Positions 4,693-13,590 of a stretch of 64,000 nucleotides of DNA are shown here, piece after piece. Origin of the DNA: Nitrospirota bacterium. GTDB lineage: Bacteria; Nitrospirota; Nitrospiria; Nitrospirales; Nitrospiraceae. The stretch covers positions 164,045 through 228,044 of the forward strand of contig CAVPBK010000003.1 of the NCBI GenBank assembly GCA_963701855.1. Reading direction: 5' to 3'. The stretch's first letter is position 1; every line of letters starts with the position of its first letter. The notes beneath the pieces are model-generated. The model saw only the letters and a list, made by a program, of their open reading frames with translations, was not told the origin of the DNA and ran no database searches. Position numbers and translations under genes: made by a program.

Positions 4693-5015
4693 CTCTTTCC
4701 TAAGTCTCTGCCGGCAATAGGGACGAGTCAAGAAGGGCGTCGGGGCCTTGCAGGTTGAGCCAGTGTAGAAGGCGAAGGAGCAAACCGCAAGGCCGACCGT
4801 AGGGAGATGTCAAGGCTCTCAGGTGGGTGTCGGAGGACGCGCGCGCGTTCTTGACTGAAGTCGATCTGACCGTGTCGGATTAGGAGAGGGCGAGAAGTCG
4901 ATTGAATATTACGGCTGGTGAATAAGCTGAGGTTTCCCCTTGCACTTCGTCTAGGAAGAACAGTAACGTATCGCGATAGCGAGTCGATTCATTGGCTTGA
5001 ATAAGGGAGGTCACT

Positions 5016-5651
5016 ATGGCTATACGACTAGGAGATGAGGCGCCGAACTTTACGGCAGAGACTACTGAAGGGACCGTCAACTTTCACGAATGGTTGGGCG
5101 GCGGGTGGGGGATTCTCTTCTCGCATCCTAAAGACTATACCCCTGTCTGCACGACCGAGTTGGGAACCGTTGCCAAAATTACGCCGGATTTCAAGAAGCG
5201 GGGTGTGAAAGTTATCGCCGTCAGCGTCGATCCGTTAGATTCGCACAAGGGGTGGATCAACGACATCAATGAGACGCAAAAGACGACGATGAACTATCCA
5301 ATTATTGCAGATCCTGACAAGAAGGTTGCGACTCTATACGATATGATTCATCCGAACGCGATGGACAACATGACGGTCCGTTCAGTATTCATCATCGGCC
5401 CGGATAAAAAGGTAAAGCTAACATTGACCTATCCTGCTTCATGTGGTCGAAACTTCGATGAATTACTGCGCGTAATTGACTCTCTTCAGCTGACCTCGAA
5501 GTTTAAGGTCGCGACGCCTGCCAACTGGAAAGACGGGGAGGATTGCATCATCACTCCGGCTGTAAACGACGCCGAAGCAAATACACTTTTCCCCAAGGGC
5601 TTTAAGACCGTGAAGCCGTATCTTCGTTACACCCCGCAGCCGAACAAGTAG
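5016..5651 (+). CDS. 1-Cys peroxiredoxin (Prx6 subfamily)
   Basis: FSHPKDYTPVCTTE active-site motif; GGGAGG RBS. Confidence 0.95.
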   Translation: MAIRLGDEAPNFTAETTEGTVNFHEWLGGGWGILFSHPKDYTPVCTTELGTVAKITPDFKKRGVKVIAVSVDPLDSHKGWINDINETQKTTMNYPIIADPDKKVATLYDMIHPNAMDNMTVRSVFIIGPDKKVKLTLTYPASCGRNFDELLRVIDSLQLTSKFKVATPANWKDGEDCIITPAVNDAEANTLFPKGFKTVKPYLRYTPQPNK

Positions 5652-5670
5652 CCAAACTGTACCGGTACTG

Positions 5671-5703
5671 AGAGCGGGAGAGACCTTGGGTCTCTCCCGC
5701 TCT
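5671..5703 (+). terminator. Stem-loop after peroxiredoxin
   Basis: AGAGCGGGAGAGACC-TTG-GGTCTCTCCCGCTCT perfect 15-bp stem; weak U tract. Confidence 0.7.
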
Positions 5704-5807
5704 TCGCTTGTCAGAGCGTGCTTCCTTCCGATCCGTGTCCATGCAGTGGACTGGAAAGAGATCGGCTGATTGCTGGAGGAAGGGAACTGTGCTAGGGTAA
5801 ATGCTCA

Positions 5808-6278
5808 ATGAGACAGATATGTAACAAGCAATCATGGTCTCGGGTAGTGATCCTCTTGTGGGCGTCCATATGGATGCTCGCTGCGCCACTGGTCCATATC
5901 CATCCTGAGGCCGACCATCGCCATGGGGCGGCAGATCACAGGCATGGGGGGGCAGTTCACACTGTTTTTTCCCCGGACCTGAACTGTGAGTTCTCGGTCT
6001 ATAACCATGCCTCGGTTGCACACGACGAATCCCACTGTCCGCTTCATCTGATCGCGCAACCTCCCCATGGGGCGGAGCACCTCGAAATTGATTTGGTTCT
6101 CGCGTCTTCTGCCGAGCCGCAAGTCGGCAAAGGCACCGCGCTGGATGTGGCCGCACATTCCTTCCACACGCTCCCCCCCGCGAGGTCTCATGTCGTTTGG
6201 CAGCCGCAACCCAGTCCTTCACTGACGAATCTGTTTCTCACGACCAGTCTGTCCTCCCGCGCTCCCCCTATCTGTTAA
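5808..6278 (+). CDS. His-rich exported leader protein ending in RAPP (DUF2946/CzcI-like position)
   Basis: N-terminal TM segment, HIH...HRHG...HRHG...H, C-terminal SSRAPPIC*, directly upstream of czcC. Confidence 0.75.
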   Translation: MRQICNKQSWSRVVILLWASIWMLAAPLVHIHPEADHRHGAADHRHGGAVHTVFSPDLNCEFSVYNHASVAHDESHCPLHLIAQPPHGAEHLEIDLVLASSAEPQVGKGTALDVAAHSFHTLPPARSHVVWQPQPSPSLTNLFLTTSLSSRAPPIC

Positions 6279-6387
6279 TCGCGTCTTTTCACATCCTCTA
6301 ACGCTTCGATCTATTTCGTCGGCGCACCATGCCCGTCTCGTAGTGTGACGGAGGCGAGTTGCCATGGCGCCGATGTGGAGGCCCCAT

Positions 6388-7647
6388 ATGAAACCTGTAT
6401 TCATCTGTACGATCACTGTCTTGCTTGGATCGGTGATCGTGGCCGCGCCTTTTCCGGCAGGCTATGCAGCCGAGCCTAGCCCGTCCGGATACACATTGAA
6501 CCAAGTCCTACAACTCGCGCTCCAACACAACCCGGTGATGAACGGCGCAGAGGCCGTCTTGGAGCAGAGCCAGAGTCAACGTGTCACGGCTGGTGCGTAC
6601 CTGAATCCCACCATCTCGGGGTCAGCCGGCCGCGGGTCGATTCGCGATCCCAGCACCAATGTCTCCATCATCGAACGTACGATCACCGTGGAGCAACCGC
6701 TGGAGTGGCTGGGCAAACGAGCCGCTCGACAACGCGCCGCTGACGCGGGATTAGCGAGCGCTCTTGCCGGGATGGACGAAACGAAAGTGGTCCTCATGGC
6801 CGACGTGAAGGCGGCGTTCTTTCAACTGCTCTTTGCCCAACAAGAGGCACAGCTCGCGAGGGAAAATCTAAAGACCGTCGACGAGCTCGTGAAATTAGTG
6901 AATGCGCGTGTCAGCACGCGGGAAGCGCCGAAATTCGAGCTGGTCAAGGCGACTGTCGAACTCCAGAAATCAAAAAAGGATCTGTCGAGGGCGGACAATG
7001 CGCTGCTCGTGGCCCGCGCCAGACTCAATACGGTCACGGGCAGGGCCCTGGGGGAGGGATTTGCCATCGAAGGAGCATTTGAACCGGTGAGGTCGGGATT
7101 GGAGCTACGCGTATTGACGGATCAGGCACTCGACCGACACCCCACACTTCGGCGACAGCAGAGAGTGGTGGAGCAAGCCGAATTCACGATCGAAAAGGAA
7201 CGGGCATCGCGCATGCCGGACGTGGCGGTGATGGGCCAGTATCATCGTGAGGCCGGCGATGAATCCGTCACGGCAGGATTGAGTGTGCCGCTGCCCCTTT
7301 GGTATCGCCGACAGGGAGAAATCGGTACGGCGATGGGCACGCATCGACGAGCGCAAGCGGAGCGAGATCGACTTCAGCAGGAGCTGGAGCAGACCATCAC
7401 CCAGCATTTTCAGGAGGTGCGGACCGCGCAAGCACAGATGCAGGTTTTCGAACAAGGACTCCTGTTTCAGGCCAAAGAAGCGTTTGACATCGCCCAATTC
7501 AGTTTTCGCCATGGAGCAACCAGTCTGCTCGAAGTCATCGATGCGCAGCGTGTCTACCGTCAGACCTTGCTCGAATATGCCCAAGCGCAAGCCGATCATT
7601 CCATTGCAATGGCCCGATTGGAACGAGCGGCGGGAGGGTTGCCATGA
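6388..7647 (+). CDS. czcC: TolC/CzcC-family outer membrane efflux protein
   Basis: Signal peptide, two OEP-like repeats, first gene of RND operon; GGAGG RBS before ATG 6388. Confidence 0.9.
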   Translation: MKPVFICTITVLLGSVIVAAPFPAGYAAEPSPSGYTLNQVLQLALQHNPVMNGAEAVLEQSQSQRVTAGAYLNPTISGSAGRGSIRDPSTNVSIIERTITVEQPLEWLGKRAARQRAADAGLASALAGMDETKVVLMADVKAAFFQLLFAQQEAQLARENLKTVDELVKLVNARVSTREAPKFELVKATVELQKSKKDLSRADNALLVARARLNTVTGRALGEGFAIEGAFEPVRSGLELRVLTDQALDRHPTLRRQQRVVEQAEFTIEKERASRMPDVAVMGQYHREAGDESVTAGLSVPLPLWYRRQGEIGTAMGTHRRAQAERDRLQQELEQTITQHFQEVRTAQAQMQVFEQGLLFQAKEAFDIAQFSFRHGATSLLEVIDAQRVYRQTLLEYAQAQADHSIAMARLERAAGGLP

Positions 7648-8864
7648 AAGCTCACTTCGTGAGGCCTATATCACCGGTGTCTCTCACGATCGTCCTGTGC
7701 TTGTTCGTAACCCTAGCGAATACGTCTTGCGAGTCCAAGCAAGAAGACGCGCGGAAGCCACCCGCCCCGGCAGCCACGTCCTCTGCTGAGCCCGGTATCA
7801 TCGAACTGCCTGATGGTAGCCCGACCTTCGCACACCTTCAAACTGATCGAGTGGCTCTCCGTCCGATCCGGACGTCCCTCAAGGCTCAGGCCGGGAAGAT
7901 TTTGGCCAACGAGAATCGATTAGCGCATCTGAGCGCGCGAGTCCCCGGCCGCATTGTGGCCGTGTATGCCAACCTTGGCGATCGAGTGAAGGCAGGAGAC
8001 CGGCTTCTCTTACTCGATAGCCCGGCCTTTGGTGAAGCCCAGTTGGAATATCGCAAAGCGAGGACCACGCTGAGCGTGATGGAAAAGGCGCTCGAACGGG
8101 CCCAAGCGCTGTTGGATCGCGGCGCAATCGGTGTGGGTGAACATCAGCGGCGCGAGGCCGACTATGAGAACGCACGAGCGGACCTGCACGAAGCAGAGGA
8201 AAAGCTGCATTTACTCGGCATGACGGAGCGGGAGATCCAGCAACTGGCCGCCAAGACATTACCCCATGCGGAGGTCGCGCGCGTCTCCCTCCGAGCCCCC
8301 TTTACAGGTGCAGTGATTGAGCGGAACGCCACCATCGGCGAAGTCATCGACCCCAATAAGATGCTCTTCACGGTGGCCGATCTCTCGACCGTCTGGGTGC
8401 GCGCCGATTTTCCGGAACAGCAGGCCGGTCGGCTGAAGACCGGACTCACCATCGAAGTGCGGGTGTCGGCCTATCCGGGCACGATGTTTCAAGGCGCCAT
8501 TACCTATGTGGGGGCGGTGATCGATCCCACAACGCGGACTGTGACGGCGCGTGCAGAGGTGACCAACGCTGACGGCCGATTGCGCCCAGAGATGTTCGCC
8601 GAAGTCACCTTGGTCACGGAAGAGCAATCCGTCTTAAGCGTGCCGCGCGCAGCGGTTCAGCAGGTCGGCAGCCGGACGGTTGTCTTCGTGGTGCGGGGGC
8701 CGCGTCGGTTCGAATCCCGCGAGGTGACCCTCGGTCAGGCCTCAAGCGAGTTCACCCAGGTTGTCTCGGGGCTAACTTCGGGAGATGACGTGGTCACGGA
8801 AGGCAGTTATGCCCTGAAGTCAGAGTTGTTGCGTGAGCAGATGCCGACGGGAGGCCCGCTATGA
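7644..8864 (+). CDS. czcB: CzcB/CusB-family membrane fusion protein
   Basis: ARVPGRI, LRAPFTG, VADLSTVWV, LRPEMFAEV; ATGA overlaps with neighbours. Confidence 0.9.
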   Translation: MKAHFVRPISPVSLTIVLCLFVTLANTSCESKQEDARKPPAPAATSSAEPGIIELPDGSPTFAHLQTDRVALRPIRTSLKAQAGKILANENRLAHLSARVPGRIVAVYANLGDRVKAGDRLLLLDSPAFGEAQLEYRKARTTLSVMEKALERAQALLDRGAIGVGEHQRREADYENARADLHEAEEKLHLLGMTEREIQQLAAKTLPHAEVARVSLRAPFTGAVIERNATIGEVIDPNKMLFTVADLSTVWVRADFPEQQAGRLKTGLTIEVRVSAYPGTMFQGAITYVGAVIDPTTRTVTARAEVTNADGRLRPEMFAEVTLVTEEQSVLSVPRAAVQQVGSRTVVFVVRGPRRFESREVTLGQASSEFTQVVSGLTSGDDVVTEGSYALKSELLREQMPTGGPL

Positions 8865-11800
8865 TCGAACGGCTGATCCGTGCCGCGCTCGCACAACGGC
8901 TCATCGTGCTGCTCCTCGCACTCGGGCTCATCGTGAGCGGCGTGACGGCGTTCCGCCATCTGCCGATTGATGCCTTCCCTGACGTCACTCCGGTGCAGGT
9001 CCAAGTAATCACCAAGGCGCCCTCTCTGGCTCCTGCAGAAATCGAACGCCTCGTGACCTTTCCCCTGGAAATCGAGTTCACAAACCTGCCGGGTAAAACG
9101 GAACTGCGGTCGGTGTCGCGGTTCGGGCTCTCGGTGATTACGGTGGTCTTTGAAGACAAGATCGATATCTATTTCGCCCGGCAACTCGTCTTGGAACGGA
9201 TGCTCCAGGCGCGATCCCGTCTTCCACAAAGCGCGGAGCCGATGCTTGGACCGGTCAGTACGGGATTAAGCGAAGTCTTTATGTATCTCGTCGAGGGCTC
9301 GACACAGACCCTGATGGAGTTGCGGACCCTCCAAGATTGGGTCATCCGTCCGATGCTGCGTGCCGTCCCAGGCCTCGCGGATGTCGATACGTTGGGTGGC
9401 CTGGTGAAGCAGTATGAAGTGCTCATCGATCCCAATCGATTGACGAGCTTTGGGCTCACATTGCGCCAAGTACACGCTGCCGTCGCAGGGAATAACCAGA
9501 ATGCTGGGGGCGGGTACATCGAGCAGGGCGGAGATAAGTTGGTGGTCCACGGTGTGGGACTGGCCCGCTCTGCGACGGATTTAGAACAGATCGTCGTGGC
9601 GGCACACAGGGGCACGCCCATCTATCTCCGGGACGTCGCCCAGGTTCGACAAGGGAGCGCGATCCGGTTGGGGGGCGTGACGCGTGACGGAAAGGGCGAG
9701 GTGCTCGAAGGCATTGCTGTCATGCTGCGTGGCGGCAATAGCCGGGAGGTGGTCTCCGCGGTGAAAGACAAGGTCGAGCTGATCAACCGGGTATTGCCGA
9801 CCGGTGTGCAGATGATTCCGTTCTATGACCGCATCGAATTAGTGGCGCGGGCGCTGGACACCGTCGAGCGGGCCTTGCTGGAGGGCGTCGCGGTCGTGAT
9901 TGTCGTGCTGTATCTGTTTCTCCGGAATCTCCGCGGGGCTCTTGTCGTCGCCGTGACATTGCCGCTGGCCATGCTGGCCACGTTCCTGATCATGCAGCAA
10001 GTCGGCCTGTCGGCGAATCTGATGTCACTAGGCGGCTTGGCCATCTCGCTGGGGATGATTGTCGATGCGGCCATTGTGCAGGTAGAGAATGTCGAGCGCC
10101 ATCTGAGCGAGCAGACCAAGGGTCGAACCCTCTTGATCGCTGACCGGTTGCCGGTCGTATTACGCGCAGTCCTGGAAGTGCGGAAGCCGAGCCTCTTCGG
10201 AGAGTTGATCATCGCCTTGACCTTTATCCCGCTTCTGACTCTCCAAGGGATGGAAGGGAAGATGTTCATTCCGCTGGCCCTAACGGTGGTGATCGCCCTC
10301 CTGAGTTCCTTGGTGCTGTCGATGACGGTGGTCCCGGTGCTGGCGGCGATGCTGATGAAGCCTCGTGCCGCAACCGAGGGCGGGCGCCTGTTGGAGCGTG
10401 TCCGGGGACGGTATCGCCGGCTGTTGGAGGGGGCTATCCGCAGAACCCGACTGGTCGTGATTGCGGCGGTCGGCTTGCTCGTCGGCGGGGCGGCCCTGGT
10501 CCCGTTCATCGGCCGGGAATTCGTACCGAGTATGGACGAAGGGTCGATCGTGGTGAATATGATGCGGCTCCCGAGCATCAGCCTGACCGAATCGCTGAAG
10601 ATTTCGGGGGATGTCGAACGGGTGTTGCTGGAGATCCCAGACGTGCACTCCATAGTGTCGCGCACAGGCGCCAACGAACTGGGGACAGATCCGATGGGAA
10701 TGGAACTCAGTGATATGTACGTCTTGCTTAAGCCCGACTCCGAGTGGCAGGCACGGTCTAAAGCCGAGATCGAAGCGCAAGTCCGCCGGCGACTGGAACA
10801 AGTGCCCGGCATCGCGTTCGGGTTGTCCCAGCCGATTGCCATGCGGGTCGATGAACTAGTGTCGGGGGTCCGGTCCCAGGTCGCAGTCAAATTATTCGGT
10901 GATGACCTCGAAACATTGCGTATGAAGGCGGACGAGATTGTCCGGGAGCTGCGGCAGGTGCGCGGCATGGTTGATCTCCGGGTCGAGCAGGTGTCGGGCC
11001 TCTACTATTTGAAGCTAGACATCGACCGTGCCAGAATCGCGCGCCACGGAATTAATGTGGCGGAGATTACGGAGGTGATTGAAGCCGTCGGAGGCGGGAT
11101 TGCCGCCGGTGAGGTGTTCGAAGGGCAATGGCGCTTTCCGATCATGGTGAGATTCCCGGATGCTCAGCGCGCCGATGTGGAGTCGATTGCGGCGCTGTGG
11201 GTGACCGCGCCAGACGGTTCCCGCATTCCACTTCGCGAGCTGGCCGACATTCGAATTGTGGAAGGGCCGGCGCAGATCAGCCGTGAACATGCGAGCCGCC
11301 GGATCGTCATCGAAGCCAATGTGGTCGGGCGTGACCTCGTCGGCGCCGTAGAAGAGGCGCAGACGGCAGTGTCCCGCCAGGTACAGCTCCCGCCCGGTTA
11401 CTATGTAACCTGGGGCGGTCAATTCGAAAACCAACAGAAGGCCATGGCACGCCTGGCCGTTGTCGTGCCCCTGGTCCTTGGACTGATCTTTCTGCTGCTC
11501 TATTTTACGTTCGGAAACCTCAGGCAAGCCGCGCTGATCCTGCTCGCGATTCCGTTTGCGATGGTCGGCGGCCTGCTGGCGCTGATGCTCGGAGGGCTGT
11601 ATCTGTCGGTTCCGGCCTCCGTCGGCTTTATTGCCTTGTTCGGTGTCGCGGTGCTCAACGGAGTCGTGAAGATCGCCTATATCAACCAACTCCGGGAACA
11701 AGGGATGTCGTTGGACGAGGCGGTGCTAACCGGCATGGTCCTGCGGTTGCGCCCTGTGATGATGACCGCGGTCGTCGCGATGATGGCGCTCATCCCCCTG

Positions 11801-11998
11801 CTGTTGGCCAGCGGTCCCGGCTCCGAAATACAACGACCGCTCGCCACGGTCGTGATCGGGGGGTTGTTTTCATCAACCGCCTTGATCCTTGTGGTGATGC
11901 CCGTGTTGTATCGGTGGATGGAACAACGAATTGTTCAACGGCGGGAAGCGGATTCCCCAACGCTTACCCCACGGTTGGGCACGGAAACGACAACGTGA
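8861..11998 (+). CDS. czcA: CzcA/CusA-family heavy-metal RND transporter
   Basis: LPIDAFPDVT, NLMSLGGLAISLGMIVDAAIVQVEN, RLRPVMMTA, GSEIQRPLATVVIGG. Confidence 0.95.
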   Translation: MIERLIRAALAQRLIVLLLALGLIVSGVTAFRHLPIDAFPDVTPVQVQVITKAPSLAPAEIERLVTFPLEIEFTNLPGKTELRSVSRFGLSVITVVFEDKIDIYFARQLVLERMLQARSRLPQSAEPMLGPVSTGLSEVFMYLVEGSTQTLMELRTLQDWVIRPMLRAVPGLADVDTLGGLVKQYEVLIDPNRLTSFGLTLRQVHAAVAGNNQNAGGGYIEQGGDKLVVHGVGLARSATDLEQIVVAAHRGTPIYLRDVAQVRQGSAIRLGGVTRDGKGEVLEGIAVMLRGGNSREVVSAVKDKVELINRVLPTGVQMIPFYDRIELVARALDTVERALLEGVAVVIVVLYLFLRNLRGALVVAVTLPLAMLATFLIMQQVGLSANLMSLGGLAISLGMIVDAAIVQVENVERHLSEQTKGRTLLIADRLPVVLRAVLEVRKPSLFGELIIALTFIPLLTLQGMEGKMFIPLALTVVIALLSSLVLSMTVVPVLAAMLMKPRAATEGGRLLERVRGRYRRLLEGAIRRTRLVVIAAVGLLVGGAALVPFIGREFVPSMDEGSIVVNMMRLPSISLTESLKISGDVERVLLEIPDVHSIVSRTGANELGTDPMGMELSDMYVLLKPDSEWQARSKAEIEAQVRRRLEQVPGIAFGLSQPIAMRVDELVSGVRSQVAVKLFGDDLETLRMKADEIVRELRQVRGMVDLRVEQVSGLYYLKLDIDRARIARHGINVAEITEVIEAVGGGIAAGEVFEGQWRFPIMVRFPDAQRADVESIAALWVTAPDGSRIPLRELADIRIVEGPAQISREHASRRIVIEANVVGRDLVGAVEEAQTAVSRQVQLPPGYYVTWGGQFENQQKAMARLAVVVPLVLGLIFLLLYFTFGNLRQAALILLAIPFAMVGGLLALMLGGLYLSVPASVGFIALFGVAVLNGVVKIAYINQLREQGMSLDEAVLTGMVLRLRPVMMTAVVAMMALIPLLLASGPGSEIQRPLATVVIGGLFSSTALILVVMPVLYRWMEQRIVQRREADSPTLTPRLGTETTT

Positions 11999-12161
11999 AG
12001 TGTGAGGAGCTGATCTTCTCAGAAATCAGTGATAGGGACATACGCTAAGTTCATTGTGTCTGCTGGTCGTTCGCTGACTTCCTATAATACGGCCATGCCT
12101 CCTAGGGTCGCAGGTTCCGGCACTTTGAAGAAACACTGCAACCCACAAGCAAGGGATTCCC

Positions 12162-13043
12162 GTGCATAACCACTCAGAAAGCAGATCCGTCCAGCAAACA
12201 AATCTGCTGATCGTCCTCCTGATGACTGGCACGTTTATGGTCATCGAGGTGGTCGGCGGTCTGTTCACGGGAAGTTTAGCGTTGTTGGCAGATGCAGGCC
12301 ATATGCTGACGGATGTAGCGGCGCTTGGACTCAGTGCTTTTGCCATGTGGATGGCTGCAAGGCCGTCGACGCCGGAGAAAAGCTACGGGTATCACCGCGC
12401 CGAGATCCTCGCCGCTGTCACCAATGCTGTGGTGCTGTTGTTGCTGGCTGTCTGGATTCTTTACGAGGCGTACCGGCGTGTATTCTCGCCGCCCCACGTG
12501 CTTGGCGTTCCGATGTTGCTCATCGGCCTCGTCGGCCTCGCCGTGAATGTTGCAAGCATGAAGCTGCTCGCTGACGAATCCGCGTCGAGTCTGAATGTTC
12601 GCAGTGCGTATTTAGAAGTGCTCAGCGATGCGATCAATTCGGTCGGAGTCATTCTTGGTGGGGTCACGATCTGGCTCACCGGGTGGTTTCTCATCGATCC
12701 GTTCCTCAGCGCCGGCATCAGTGTCTTCATCGTCTGGCGCACGTGGGCACTGCTCACTCAGGCTGTGCATGTGCTCATGGAAGGAGTGCCGACTCATCTG
12801 GACGCCAAAGAGGTTGGACGAGCCATGGCCGGTGTGCCTGGCGTGAAAGGTATTCATGATCTTCACATTTGGACCATTACCTCCGGCCTGGACGCCCTCA
12901 GTGCCCATGTGGTGGTCCCTGTTGGAGAGGATCGGGATGCAGTGTTGGGCCGTCTCCAATCTCTTCTACGAGACCGATGGAGAATCGACCATGCCACGCT
13001 GCAGATTGTGGAAGAACGATCGGACCGAGTTCAGGTGGAATAG
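12162..13043 (+). CDS. czcD: Cation diffusion facilitator (CzcD/ZitB-like)
   Basis: SLALLADAGHMLTD, HDLHIWTITSG, HATLQ. Confidence 0.92.
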   Translation: MHNHSESRSVQQTNLLIVLLMTGTFMVIEVVGGLFTGSLALLADAGHMLTDVAALGLSAFAMWMAARPSTPEKSYGYHRAEILAAVTNAVVLLLLAVWILYEAYRRVFSPPHVLGVPMLLIGLVGLAVNVASMKLLADESASSLNVRSAYLEVLSDAINSVGVILGGVTIWLTGWFLIDPFLSAGISVFIVWRTWALLTQAVHVLMEGVPTHLDAKEVGRAMAGVPGVKGIHDLHIWTITSGLDALSAHVVVPVGEDRDAVLGRLQSLLRDRWRIDHATLQIVEERSDRVQVE

Positions 13044-13124
13044 GAAACACCTGTGCTAACAGGGGCAAGGCGATGCACGAAAGGAGGATAAATGTATTGA
13101 TGTGGGGGGCTTGAGTCATTCATT

Positions 13125-13460
13125 TTATTCTTTCGCGGTCCAGCCAAAGACGATAACCGCCATACCAAGCATGGCAATTCCGGCCCCAGTCCAGTCGAAG
13201 ACGGATAGTTTCTCACCGTCCACGACCTTCAGCCAGACGAGAGCCGCTGCCACGTATACACCACCATAGGCAGCATAGACCCGTCCGCTGGCGGCGGGGT
13301 GGAGAGTGAGGAGCCAGACAAAGGCGGCGAGACTGAGCGCCGCCGGAACCAAGAGCCAGATTGATCCGTTCTTGCGAAGCCAGAGATATGGTAGAAAGCA
13401 ACCGACGATTTCGGCGAGGGCAGTGAGAACGAAGAGCGCAGCGGTCTGGATCAGGAGCAT
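13125..13460 (-). CDS. ynfA: YnfA (UPF0060) SMR-like membrane protein
   Basis: [26 protein letters not shown]. Confidence 0.9.
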
Positions 13461-13590
13461 AGGCACGTTCCCCTTCTTATGGGCGATAACGTCTCATCAT
13501 GCATTATAAGAGTCAAGTTCGAAGGGCTCGAGCCGGGTTGACAATTTGTCATTGAAGCATAGTGTGAAAAAATTGTTTTTCTGCAGCCTG

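Follow-up and report, generated by a model that had tools for sequence, protein, structure and literature searches.

In Rhodobacter capsulatus, the CutF protein of the cutFOG genes stalls its own ribosome on a PPP motif, and periplasmic copper is described as prolonging this stall, melting a stem-loop over cutO's ribosome-binding site (RBS) (PMC9973294; 10.1101/2025.02.05.636593). CruR (Bp2923) of Bordetella pertussis, a leader of the DUF2946 family (PF11162) that carries CxxC and RAPP motifs, is reported to respond with the opposite polarity, copper relieving the arrest, and to be read out through Rho (Roy et al., 2022, PMC9426467), and its arrest has also been demonstrated in vitro (PMC12992588). 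In this article, I will discuss an open reading frame (ORF) of 156 amino acids (aa) that ends in RAPP and directly precedes the genes of a heavy-metal efflux pump in a Nitrospirota bacterium (family Nitrospiraceae; assembly GCA_963701855.1, contig CAVPBK010000003.1, positions 164,045 to 228,044); this stretch of 64,000 nucleotides (nt), which I will call the window, supplies the coordinates given below. An initial annotation of the window had taken the ORF for a His-rich, metal-sensing arrest leader with a logic perhaps inverse to that of CruR, and for its best candidate for an undescribed system. Judging from comparative sequence analysis, I find it probable, with good though not full confidence, that the ORF is a cis-acting stalling leader controlling the pump genes, and I lean, with less assurance, towards a leader in which the stalled state is the ON state.

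The leader comprises the following parts:

5808-6278, forward strand: leader ORF ending in RAPP, 156 aa, C-terminus SSRAPPIC and then the stop; member of an unnamed, mainly Nitrospirales family.
5826-5894, forward strand: predicted N-in/C-out membrane anchor, residues ~7-29, from an AlphaFold2 helix, hydropathy and the near-invariant W18, W22 and P27.
5895-5993, forward strand: His/Glu region, residues 30-62, with H30-x-H32, HPEADHRHG..HRHGG, H51-TVF and E61, from conservation; predicted periplasmic.
6078-6101, forward strand: H-L/P-E-I-x-L/F motif with E93, residues 91-98, from its fixed distance to RAPP.
6258-6269, forward strand: RAPP codons CGC GCT CCC CCT, from motif conservation.

Translation gives the ORF just as it was initially drawn, with its stop codon at 6276-6278, and the 16 histidines among its 156 aa include the dense cluster then pointed out: HIH at residues 30-32, HRHG present twice and HDESHCPLH at residues 72-80. 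The hydrophobic N-terminal segment is likewise seen, both as a 19-residue hydropathy maximum (mean 2.17) starting from residue 13 and as an AlphaFold2 helix at residues 7-28 (block pLDDT, the predicted local distance difference test, 89-96); with three positive residues ahead of it, the positive-inside rule leads me to infer an N-in/C-out anchor and a His/Glu part that would face the periplasm. The same model sets H30/H32 beside H51 through a beta-hairpin (29-33/48-52) of moderate confidence and places a short helix at 140-146, the remainder being disordered. As for the description of the leader as a His-based variant without CxxC, there is no CxxC anywhere in the 156 aa and no conserved Cys column in an alignment of 101 full-length family members, so the description holds.

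Now considering that, of 35,064 open frames of the genome (at least 60 codons), 25 carry R[AG]PP and 26 carry A[AG]PP within their final 12 residues, a C-terminal RAPP is not rare by chance and the argument rests on the conservation of the motif, not on its occurrence. Fifty-three loci were read from DNA, comprising 20 first relatives (mostly from the window's genus), 13 distant homologues or paralogues and 20 loci from other genera, and every one of the 53 has R[AG]PP 2-6 residues ahead of the stop (50 RAPP, 3 RGPP). Among 120 close homologues the motif is retained in 118 (116 RAPP, 2 RGPP) and absent from 2, and among the best 150 of 226 cluster representatives an R-x-PP at most 8 residues from the end is found in 124 (RAPP 106, RPPP 10, RGPP 7, RSPP 1), the other 26 being mostly fragments or frames that run past the motif; exactly 4 residues follow it in 88 of these 124. 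Nearly all replacements of RAPP are motifs of a stalling type themselves, RGPP as in the set of Fujiwara et al. (PMC12992588) and PPP as in CutF. A subgroup with HPEADHAHG..HSVLS has RPPP at the RAPP position, and comprises the 10 representatives P0158, P0175, P0183, P0189, P0197, P0203, P0204, P0208, P0213 and P0232.

Across the 101 full-length members, whose mean column identity is 22%, R151, P153 and P154 are the sole invariant columns, and W18, W22, P27, H30, H32 and H51 are conserved to at least 90%; in a 16-member alignment (A3) the three histidines are invariant and E61 and E93 are conserved to at least 90%. The spacing is held as well: in each of the 26 loci scored, the distance from PE[IL]xF, a motif that reads HLEIDL in the window's leader, to the Arg of RAPP is 58-61 residues (exactly 60 in 20), and the sequence separating the two has diverged beyond recognition. 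This scoring missed the 7 closest relatives with LEIDL, the window's ORF included.

The same pattern bears on another reading, by which the product of the ORF would be a stable metal-binding accessory of the pump, anchored in the membrane on the periplasmic side and acting as a chaperone or buffer, in which RAPP would be a structural or interaction motif. The protein is His-rich, with a predicted anchor and its bulk outside, and small periplasmic proteins are encoded next to some czc/cus operons. However, disorder is predicted for most of the exported part, whose conservation is poor, the sole invariant residues lie a few residues from the stop, the substitutions RGPP and RPPP are not conservative structural swaps, and paralogues of the leader precede unrelated secreted proteins, all of which makes such an accessory very unlikely.

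The family of the leader is real: a chance ORF is ruled out by 231 homologues at E<=0.01 (word-index search), from sources named Nitrospira or Nitrospiraceae, and by the 226 cluster representatives, obtained at E<=0.001 with a profile of 16 diverse members against 1.84 billion proteins. The family is present in 34 of 61 related genomes, including 29 of 36 from the window's genus, and in 45 of 301 genomes sampled across the phylum; the 44 positive genomes besides the window's own (4.30 Mb, 55.6% G+C) fall in three families (38/50, 5/24 and 1/1), with none in the other families searched, so that on these counts its members appear to be found almost only in Nitrospirales. The leader ORF has no Pfam or NCBIfam match, nor does any family member match a Pfam model, none of 16 family members matches DUF2946 at E<=10, and a PF11162 search of the window's genome did not match the ORF and gave two matches elsewhere, of 14.2 and 13 bits, below the cut-off. 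In existing annotation, members appear as hypothetical proteins or have a start codon that truncates the anchor, the shorter annotated forms of 129-138 aa beginning inside it.

Downstream of the leader, across a spacer of 109 nt (6279-6387) that agrees with the gap first reported, stand these genes:

6388-7647, forward strand: outer-membrane factor, CzcC/TolC-like (czcC); PF02321, E 1.7e-51.
7644-8864, forward strand: periplasmic adaptor, CzcB/CusB-like; PF16576, E 5.8e-59, and TIGR01730 above cut-off.
8861-11998, forward strand: heavy-metal permease of the resistance-nodulation-division (RND) type, CusA/CzcA family; TIGR00914 1180.9 bits (cut-off 701) and PF00873.
12162-13043, forward strand: cation diffusion facilitator (CDF) efflux transporter, ZitB-like; PF01545 and TIGR01297.

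By these family assignments, the first three genes are a heavy-metal RND efflux system of the CzcCBA/CusCBA type, the closest solved permease being ZneA (735 bits; CusA 673 bits), and the CDF transporter is possibly part of the same unit. The gene after the leader in the 53 loci is an outer-membrane efflux factor in 33, an RND adaptor in 12 and another gene in 7, with one locus cut off; a pump gene is thus next in 45 of 53, including 20 of 20 from other genera. Adjacency to metal transporters and the retention of RAPP in homologues, which the initial annotation had proposed to look for, are both found, and so is a conserved spacing to RAPP. The initial annotation had also remarked on the lack of a regulator next to the czc genes, and a scan of 23 ORFs at 193-21591, the leader not counted, found no two-component, MerR or ArsR family. 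In L009, L010 and L017 the adaptor gene directly follows the leader. In L020, from another genome of the window's genus, the outer-membrane factor is reduced to its last 48 residues (czcC residues 371-418) between leader and adaptor, and the gene has apparently been deleted.

The 7 non-pump loci are paralogues, and 5 of these (L024, L025, L026, L027 and L029, all from other genomes of the window's genus) stand ahead of genes for an RTX-repeat protein, a multicopper-oxidase/Ig protein of 1087 aa, a HAD phosphatase (in an operon) and two GDSL-type hydrolases. The same five have no HPEADHxHG..HxHGG and keep the H-x-H, HTVF, E, E, RAPP scaffold, and across the loci the HPEADHxHG..HxHGG motif tracks the pump neighbourhood, which suggests that the scaffold was reused for other signals. 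It is here that an arrest leader reporting export or membrane-insertion capacity, or envelope stress, in the manner of SecM, MifM, VemP and ApdA/ApdP, has to be weighed, a leader in which the histidines would be incidental. The architecture, an N-terminal export signal with a C-terminal RAPP, matches that of monitoring substrates, and some paralogues without the His-rich motif precede secreted non-metal proteins; but no Sec or YidC component lies downstream in any of the 53 loci (sec or yidC as the gene next to the leader, 0/53), HPEADHxHG..HxHGG goes with the pumps, and conservation reaches at least 90% for H30, H32 and H51. An export monitor is therefore a highly unlikely account of this family.

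How does the probably metal-responsive cis leader that I favor compare with described systems? Like CutF, it is a small protein, exported by prediction, that carries a putative metal-binding motif and has a proline stalling motif at its C-terminus, would act in cis on the next, detoxifying gene and has a stem-loop at the downstream RBS, and the CutF rule that periplasmic metal prolongs the stall, stalled being ON, is proposed for it by analogy. Unlike CutF, which is described as sensing copper via CxxxC/disulfides, stalling on PPP and needing EF-P, the leader family is without a conserved Cys pair, uses RAPP, is membrane-anchored by prediction and does not match DUF2946, and unmasking of the downstream Shine-Dalgarno sequence (SD) is not backed by the controls described below. 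In the survey of 5,334 CutF-like proteins by Ozturk et al. (2023, PMC9973294), which applied a 150-aa length filter, outer-membrane efflux genes are given as the commonest neighbor, with CusA/CzcA and CusB/CzcB also frequent, and clusters with histidines only are reported beside HupE/UreJ genes, unlike the leader family, which stands beside pumps. Measured against this CutF-like filter, the PP and the 109-nt spacer of the leader fit, its 156 aa exceed the limit of 150 and its N-terminus resembles an uncleaved anchor, not a signal peptide.

With CruR the leader shares RAPP a few residues from the C-terminus, an N-terminal export signal (predicted here), a place at the head of a metal-homeostasis operon, a fixed spacing between ligand motif and RAPP, C-rich RNA around the end of the ORF and a long spacer (162 nt in CruR as published, 109 nt here). 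However, in the published accounts CruR has its CxxC at 45 residues, is followed by an importer and is switched OFF by metal, whereas the leader has putative His/Glu ligands, a distance of ~60 residues and an exporter after it. Although it fails DUF2946 on both the model match and the Cys motif, by analogy it most likely works like that family, and the inverse-to-CruR logic proposed initially would agree with the published logic of CutF. ApdA, ApdP and the Streptomyces lividans set, likewise small secretory or membrane proteins, share the arrest motif and its position (PMC10951233; PMC12992588), ApdA and ApdP being described, unlike the leader, as monitors of SecDF. SecM-secA of Escherichia coli offers an exported leader of similar length, an R-A-G/P-type motif a few codons before the stop, release of the arrest by a pulling force (as proposed for the leader) and a downstream RBS in a stem-loop (PMC10951233); SecM is there said to sense SecA activity, not a ligand, and no sequence relationship between it and the leader was found.

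The claim of an undescribed system does not survive this comparison, since CutF and CruR define the kind, the 2023 survey has efflux neighbors and published source data list members of the leader family itself. In Fujiwara et al. (2025, PMC12992588), small secretory proteins with RAPP/RGPP are shown to precede diverse genes, and the Fig. 4B source data count, for upstream ORFs with RAPP versus AAPP, 620 versus 148 ahead of RND adaptors, 530 versus 380 ahead of TolC-family genes and 50 versus 7 ahead of CusA/CzcA. Listed there are Nitrospira members of the leader family upstream of TolC-family and RND-adaptor genes, including homologue P0111, and the main text of that paper is silent on efflux, the word occurring 0 times. 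By sequence the family is of the RAPP type, with a conserved RAPP or RGPP near the C-terminus of a small predicted membrane protein. A search of the literature on Nitrospira and CutF-type or ribosome-stalling efflux leaders found no paper on it. The kind is thus known and the leader family already listed in published data, unnamed and without a family model, and it merits both.

Turning to mechanism, the N-terminal anchor of the leader would insert via SecYEG and leave the His/Glu-rich segment in the periplasm. In the stall that I infer, Pro153 (6264-6266) would occupy the P site and Pro154 (6267-6269) the A site, a geometry borrowed from ApdA/ApdP structures (PMC10951233) and CruR toeprints (PMC12992588), and a stalled ribosome would mean that the pump operon is on. 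When no metal is present, translocation or folding of the exported part would pull on the chain and release the arrest, with termination 3 codons on; the czcC RBS would then fold onto the pyrimidine-rich RAPP region via a junction closed by a conserved hairpin, and the pump would stay low. When Zn, Co, Ni or Cd sits on the exposed H30/H32/H51/E61/E93 and the extra HxHG motifs, this pull would be lost and the stall would last, the ribosome covering ~6250-6280, making czcC translatable and perhaps also shielding a C-rich loading site for Rho; SD unmasking and Rho protection may act together. I would hold these parts apart in confidence: that metal prolongs the stall, which is argued by analogy, hangs close to the balance and falls slightly on the side of doubt, and that RBS masking is the main read-out is more doubtful again.

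The reverse polarity, that of CruR, would have metal release the stall, with folding of the His/Glu segment pulling on the chain, so that the leader lowers the pump when metal is present or sets a basal level. With a fixed distance of ~60 residues to RAPP, the E93 motif would, at arrest, lie close to where the translocon opens outwards, and folding there could exert force; also, CruR is a precedent for copper relieving an arrest (PMC9426467). Nevertheless, an exporter shut off by its own substrate is physiologically senseless, CutF as described has the opposite polarity for a detoxifying gene and the stalled state is ON in both read-outs considered here, which leaves release by metal improbable.

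The read-outs in question concern these elements:

6318-6374, forward strand: stem-loop with an outer helix (6318-6325/6367-6374) and two inner hairpins, abutting the czcC RBS; from RNAalifold, a single-sequence fold and covariation.
6377-6390, forward strand: czcC SD GGAGG at 6377-6381 and ATG at 6388-6390.
6219-6323, forward strand: C-rich, G-poor tract running from the end of the ORF through spacer positions +1 to +45, a candidate Rho-utilisation site; from base composition.

The hairpin that the initial annotation had drawn beside the czcC RBS is recovered by RNAalifold and by the single-sequence fold and is backed by covariation, its outer helix being paired to 93% over 43 distinct sequences, in which 3 of the 8 pairs have compensatory changes. 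The anti-SD-like TCCTCC is present at 6252-6257, but it is not conserved, its third base varying in relatives. The predicted partner of the czcC SD is either 6259-6265, in the RAPP codons, or 6253-6257, in the Ser-Ser codons. The pairing probability between leader 3' end and SD is 0.56 in the window, and values of 0.56-1.0 are obtained for 16 of 18 loci of its genus; RNAalifold also pairs the two in two genus subgroups with different spacers, the SD binding the RAPP codons in one and the codons immediately after RAPP in the other. Also, GCU and CCY codons are favored at A-P-P in the first 33 loci (Ala GCT 26/31 versus 12.9% genome-wide), and other conserved Ala/Pro codons of those ORFs vary. 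A second GGAGG (6350-6354) with an ATG (6364) inside the conserved hairpin gives a 427-aa reading of czcC. A czcC start at 6364 was rejected, since in relatives this ATG does not share the czcC frame and runs to a stop overlapping the true start, and the czcC start is therefore 6388.

A good deal speaks against what I have set out, above all against SD masking. The codon bias does not extend to the 20 loci from other genera (Ala GCG 10, GCT 5; first Pro CCG 9, CCT 9), so it may reflect ancestry within the genus, and a pairing probability of at least 0.5 is reached in only 6 of the 20. Synonymous recodings pair with the SD at least as strongly as the actual RAPP codons in a fraction of 0.78 for the window, a fraction below 0.05 being found in only 3 of 18 loci, and masking the footprint of a stalled ribosome barely frees the SD: its median unpaired probability shifts from 0.15 to 0.18 in the set of 18 loci and from 0.18 to 0.16 in the set of 20, that of the window from 0.24 to 0.31, and a rise of at least 0.3 is seen in only 2 of 38 loci. 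The fold of the window is no stabler than shuffles (z = +0.75), 156 of 200 folding at least as well. The RAPP:SD helix has one double change only, which says nothing either way because both strands are constrained for other reasons. The masking mechanism built on hairpin and SD thus failed the synonymous-recoding, other-genus, masked-ribosome and shuffle controls, and the lesson is that Pro-Pro codons pair with an SD by composition alone and that such pairings are no evidence of mechanism. Beyond RNA folding, the leader model is weak outside the anchor, with a mean pLDDT of 65 and values below 50 for residues 83-98 and 108-117, the permease sits between ZneA and CusA so that similarity does not fix its metal specificity, and czcC could have a promoter of its own inside the spacer.

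The same arrest leader might be read out in transcription, as in CruR: after normal termination Rho would load on the bare RNA at ~6219-6323 and stop RNA polymerase before or within czcC, whereas a ribosome stalled at RAPP would cover the middle of the tract and let the polymerase read on, the hairpin serving as a pause site. The last 60 nt of the ORF are 38% C and 15% G in the window (mean of 53 loci, C 42%/G 15%), an excess of C over G that recurs at the ORF end in all three locus sets, and the spacer from +1 to +45 has C 33%/G 16%/T 38% (mean of 53 loci, C 28%/G 22%/T 31%); the genome has a rho gene (703 bits, above cut-off), a scan of 5550-6450 found no intrinsic terminator in the spacer, and the competing SD-masking read-out failed its controls. 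CruR, with RAPP 3 residues from its end, is reported to work by Rho (PMC9426467). On the other side, the C-richness of the ORF end comes partly from a Ser/Pro/Leu/Thr-rich peptide that is perhaps kept for tunnel contacts, the skew of the spacer is modest outside the window's genus, and the predicted SD pairing in nearly all loci is left unexplained. Taken together, Rho-dependent attenuation fits about as well as SD masking, and I put it forward tentatively. With either read-out, the core of the initial annotation, an arrest leader acting in cis, is favored by the comparative tests; its undescribed status has fallen away, the anti-SD is not conserved and SD masking is not supported by the controls.

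Upstream of the leader lies a further conserved element:

5770-5798, forward strand: conserved block with TTGCTG (5770-5775), 17 nt and TGcTAGGGT (5790-5798), from an alignment of 20 loci.

This block, part of the stretch 5764-5807 just ahead of the leader, is conserved across the 20 loci even where the upstream gene differs and ends 10 nt before the ATG, and it may be a sigma-70 promoter of the extended -10 kind, in which case the 5' untranslated region of the leader would be only a few bases long and the mRNA nearly leaderless; alternatively, AGGG (5794-5797) may be the ribosome-binding site of the leader. A sigma-70 consensus scan of 5550-6450 found no promoter, and the scan of the same region for terminators gave one terminator-like site, which falls inside the ORF; by chance, one such site is to be expected. 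An Rfam search of 5000-13500 returned no match at E<=1, so that a NiCo or other riboswitch was not found there. Only two public RNA runs matched, with shares of 0.06 and 0.04; the matches are short contigs from 90-95% relatives, one of uncertain RNA origin, and are uninformative on co-transcription or RNA ends.

The surroundings of the leader and pump genes can be added briefly:

5016-5651: 1-Cys peroxiredoxin gene, upstream of the leader.
5672-5703: G+C-rich hairpin after the peroxiredoxin gene, followed by TTCGCTT.
13125-13466, reverse strand: gene for a YnfA/UPF0060-family small membrane protein, directly after the CDF transporter.

Both arms of the hairpin at 5672-5703 are conserved in most aligned relatives, and it is probably the terminator of the peroxiredoxin gene, missed by the pattern scan. 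Beyond the window, the same genome has 4 more small RAPP ORFs, at C5:305362-305760 and at C6:964986-965480, 967305-967610 and 970978-971331 (L035, L034), with a hydrophobic N-terminus, His/Cys motifs (C-x-W-x-C in three) and RAPP 2-4 residues from the stop. These lie upstream of genes for a TonB-dependent receptor, TonB, a redoxin and a MetA-like outer-membrane protein, and are below Pfam cut-offs, one having a weak DUF2946 match of 13 bits.

Furthermore, the possibilities may not end with a single pump. Tentatively, the leader family could be a modular nascent-chain sensor scaffold of the Nitrospirales, made up of the anchor, H-x-H, H-T-V-F, E, a second E ~60 residues before the end, and RAPP, with an exported segment that has been retuned several times. 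If this modular reading is true, the form with HPEADHxHG..HxHGG would be the first nascent-peptide sensor of divalent metals (Zn/Co/Ni/Cd) to work via His/Glu ligands alone, the leader would take the place of two-component and MerR-type regulators, which these pumps do not have next to them, and the forms without the motif, which would control the genes for the RTX-repeat, the 1087-aa multicopper-oxidase/Ig and the GDSL-type hydrolase proteins, would respond to non-metal ligands. In soils and water treatment, settings in which nitrification is inhibited by metals, key nitrifiers belong to Nitrospira, and the leader would provide them with a regulator-free, translation-coupled metal switch, widening the CutF/CruR principle from cysteine-based copper sensing to sensing based on histidine.

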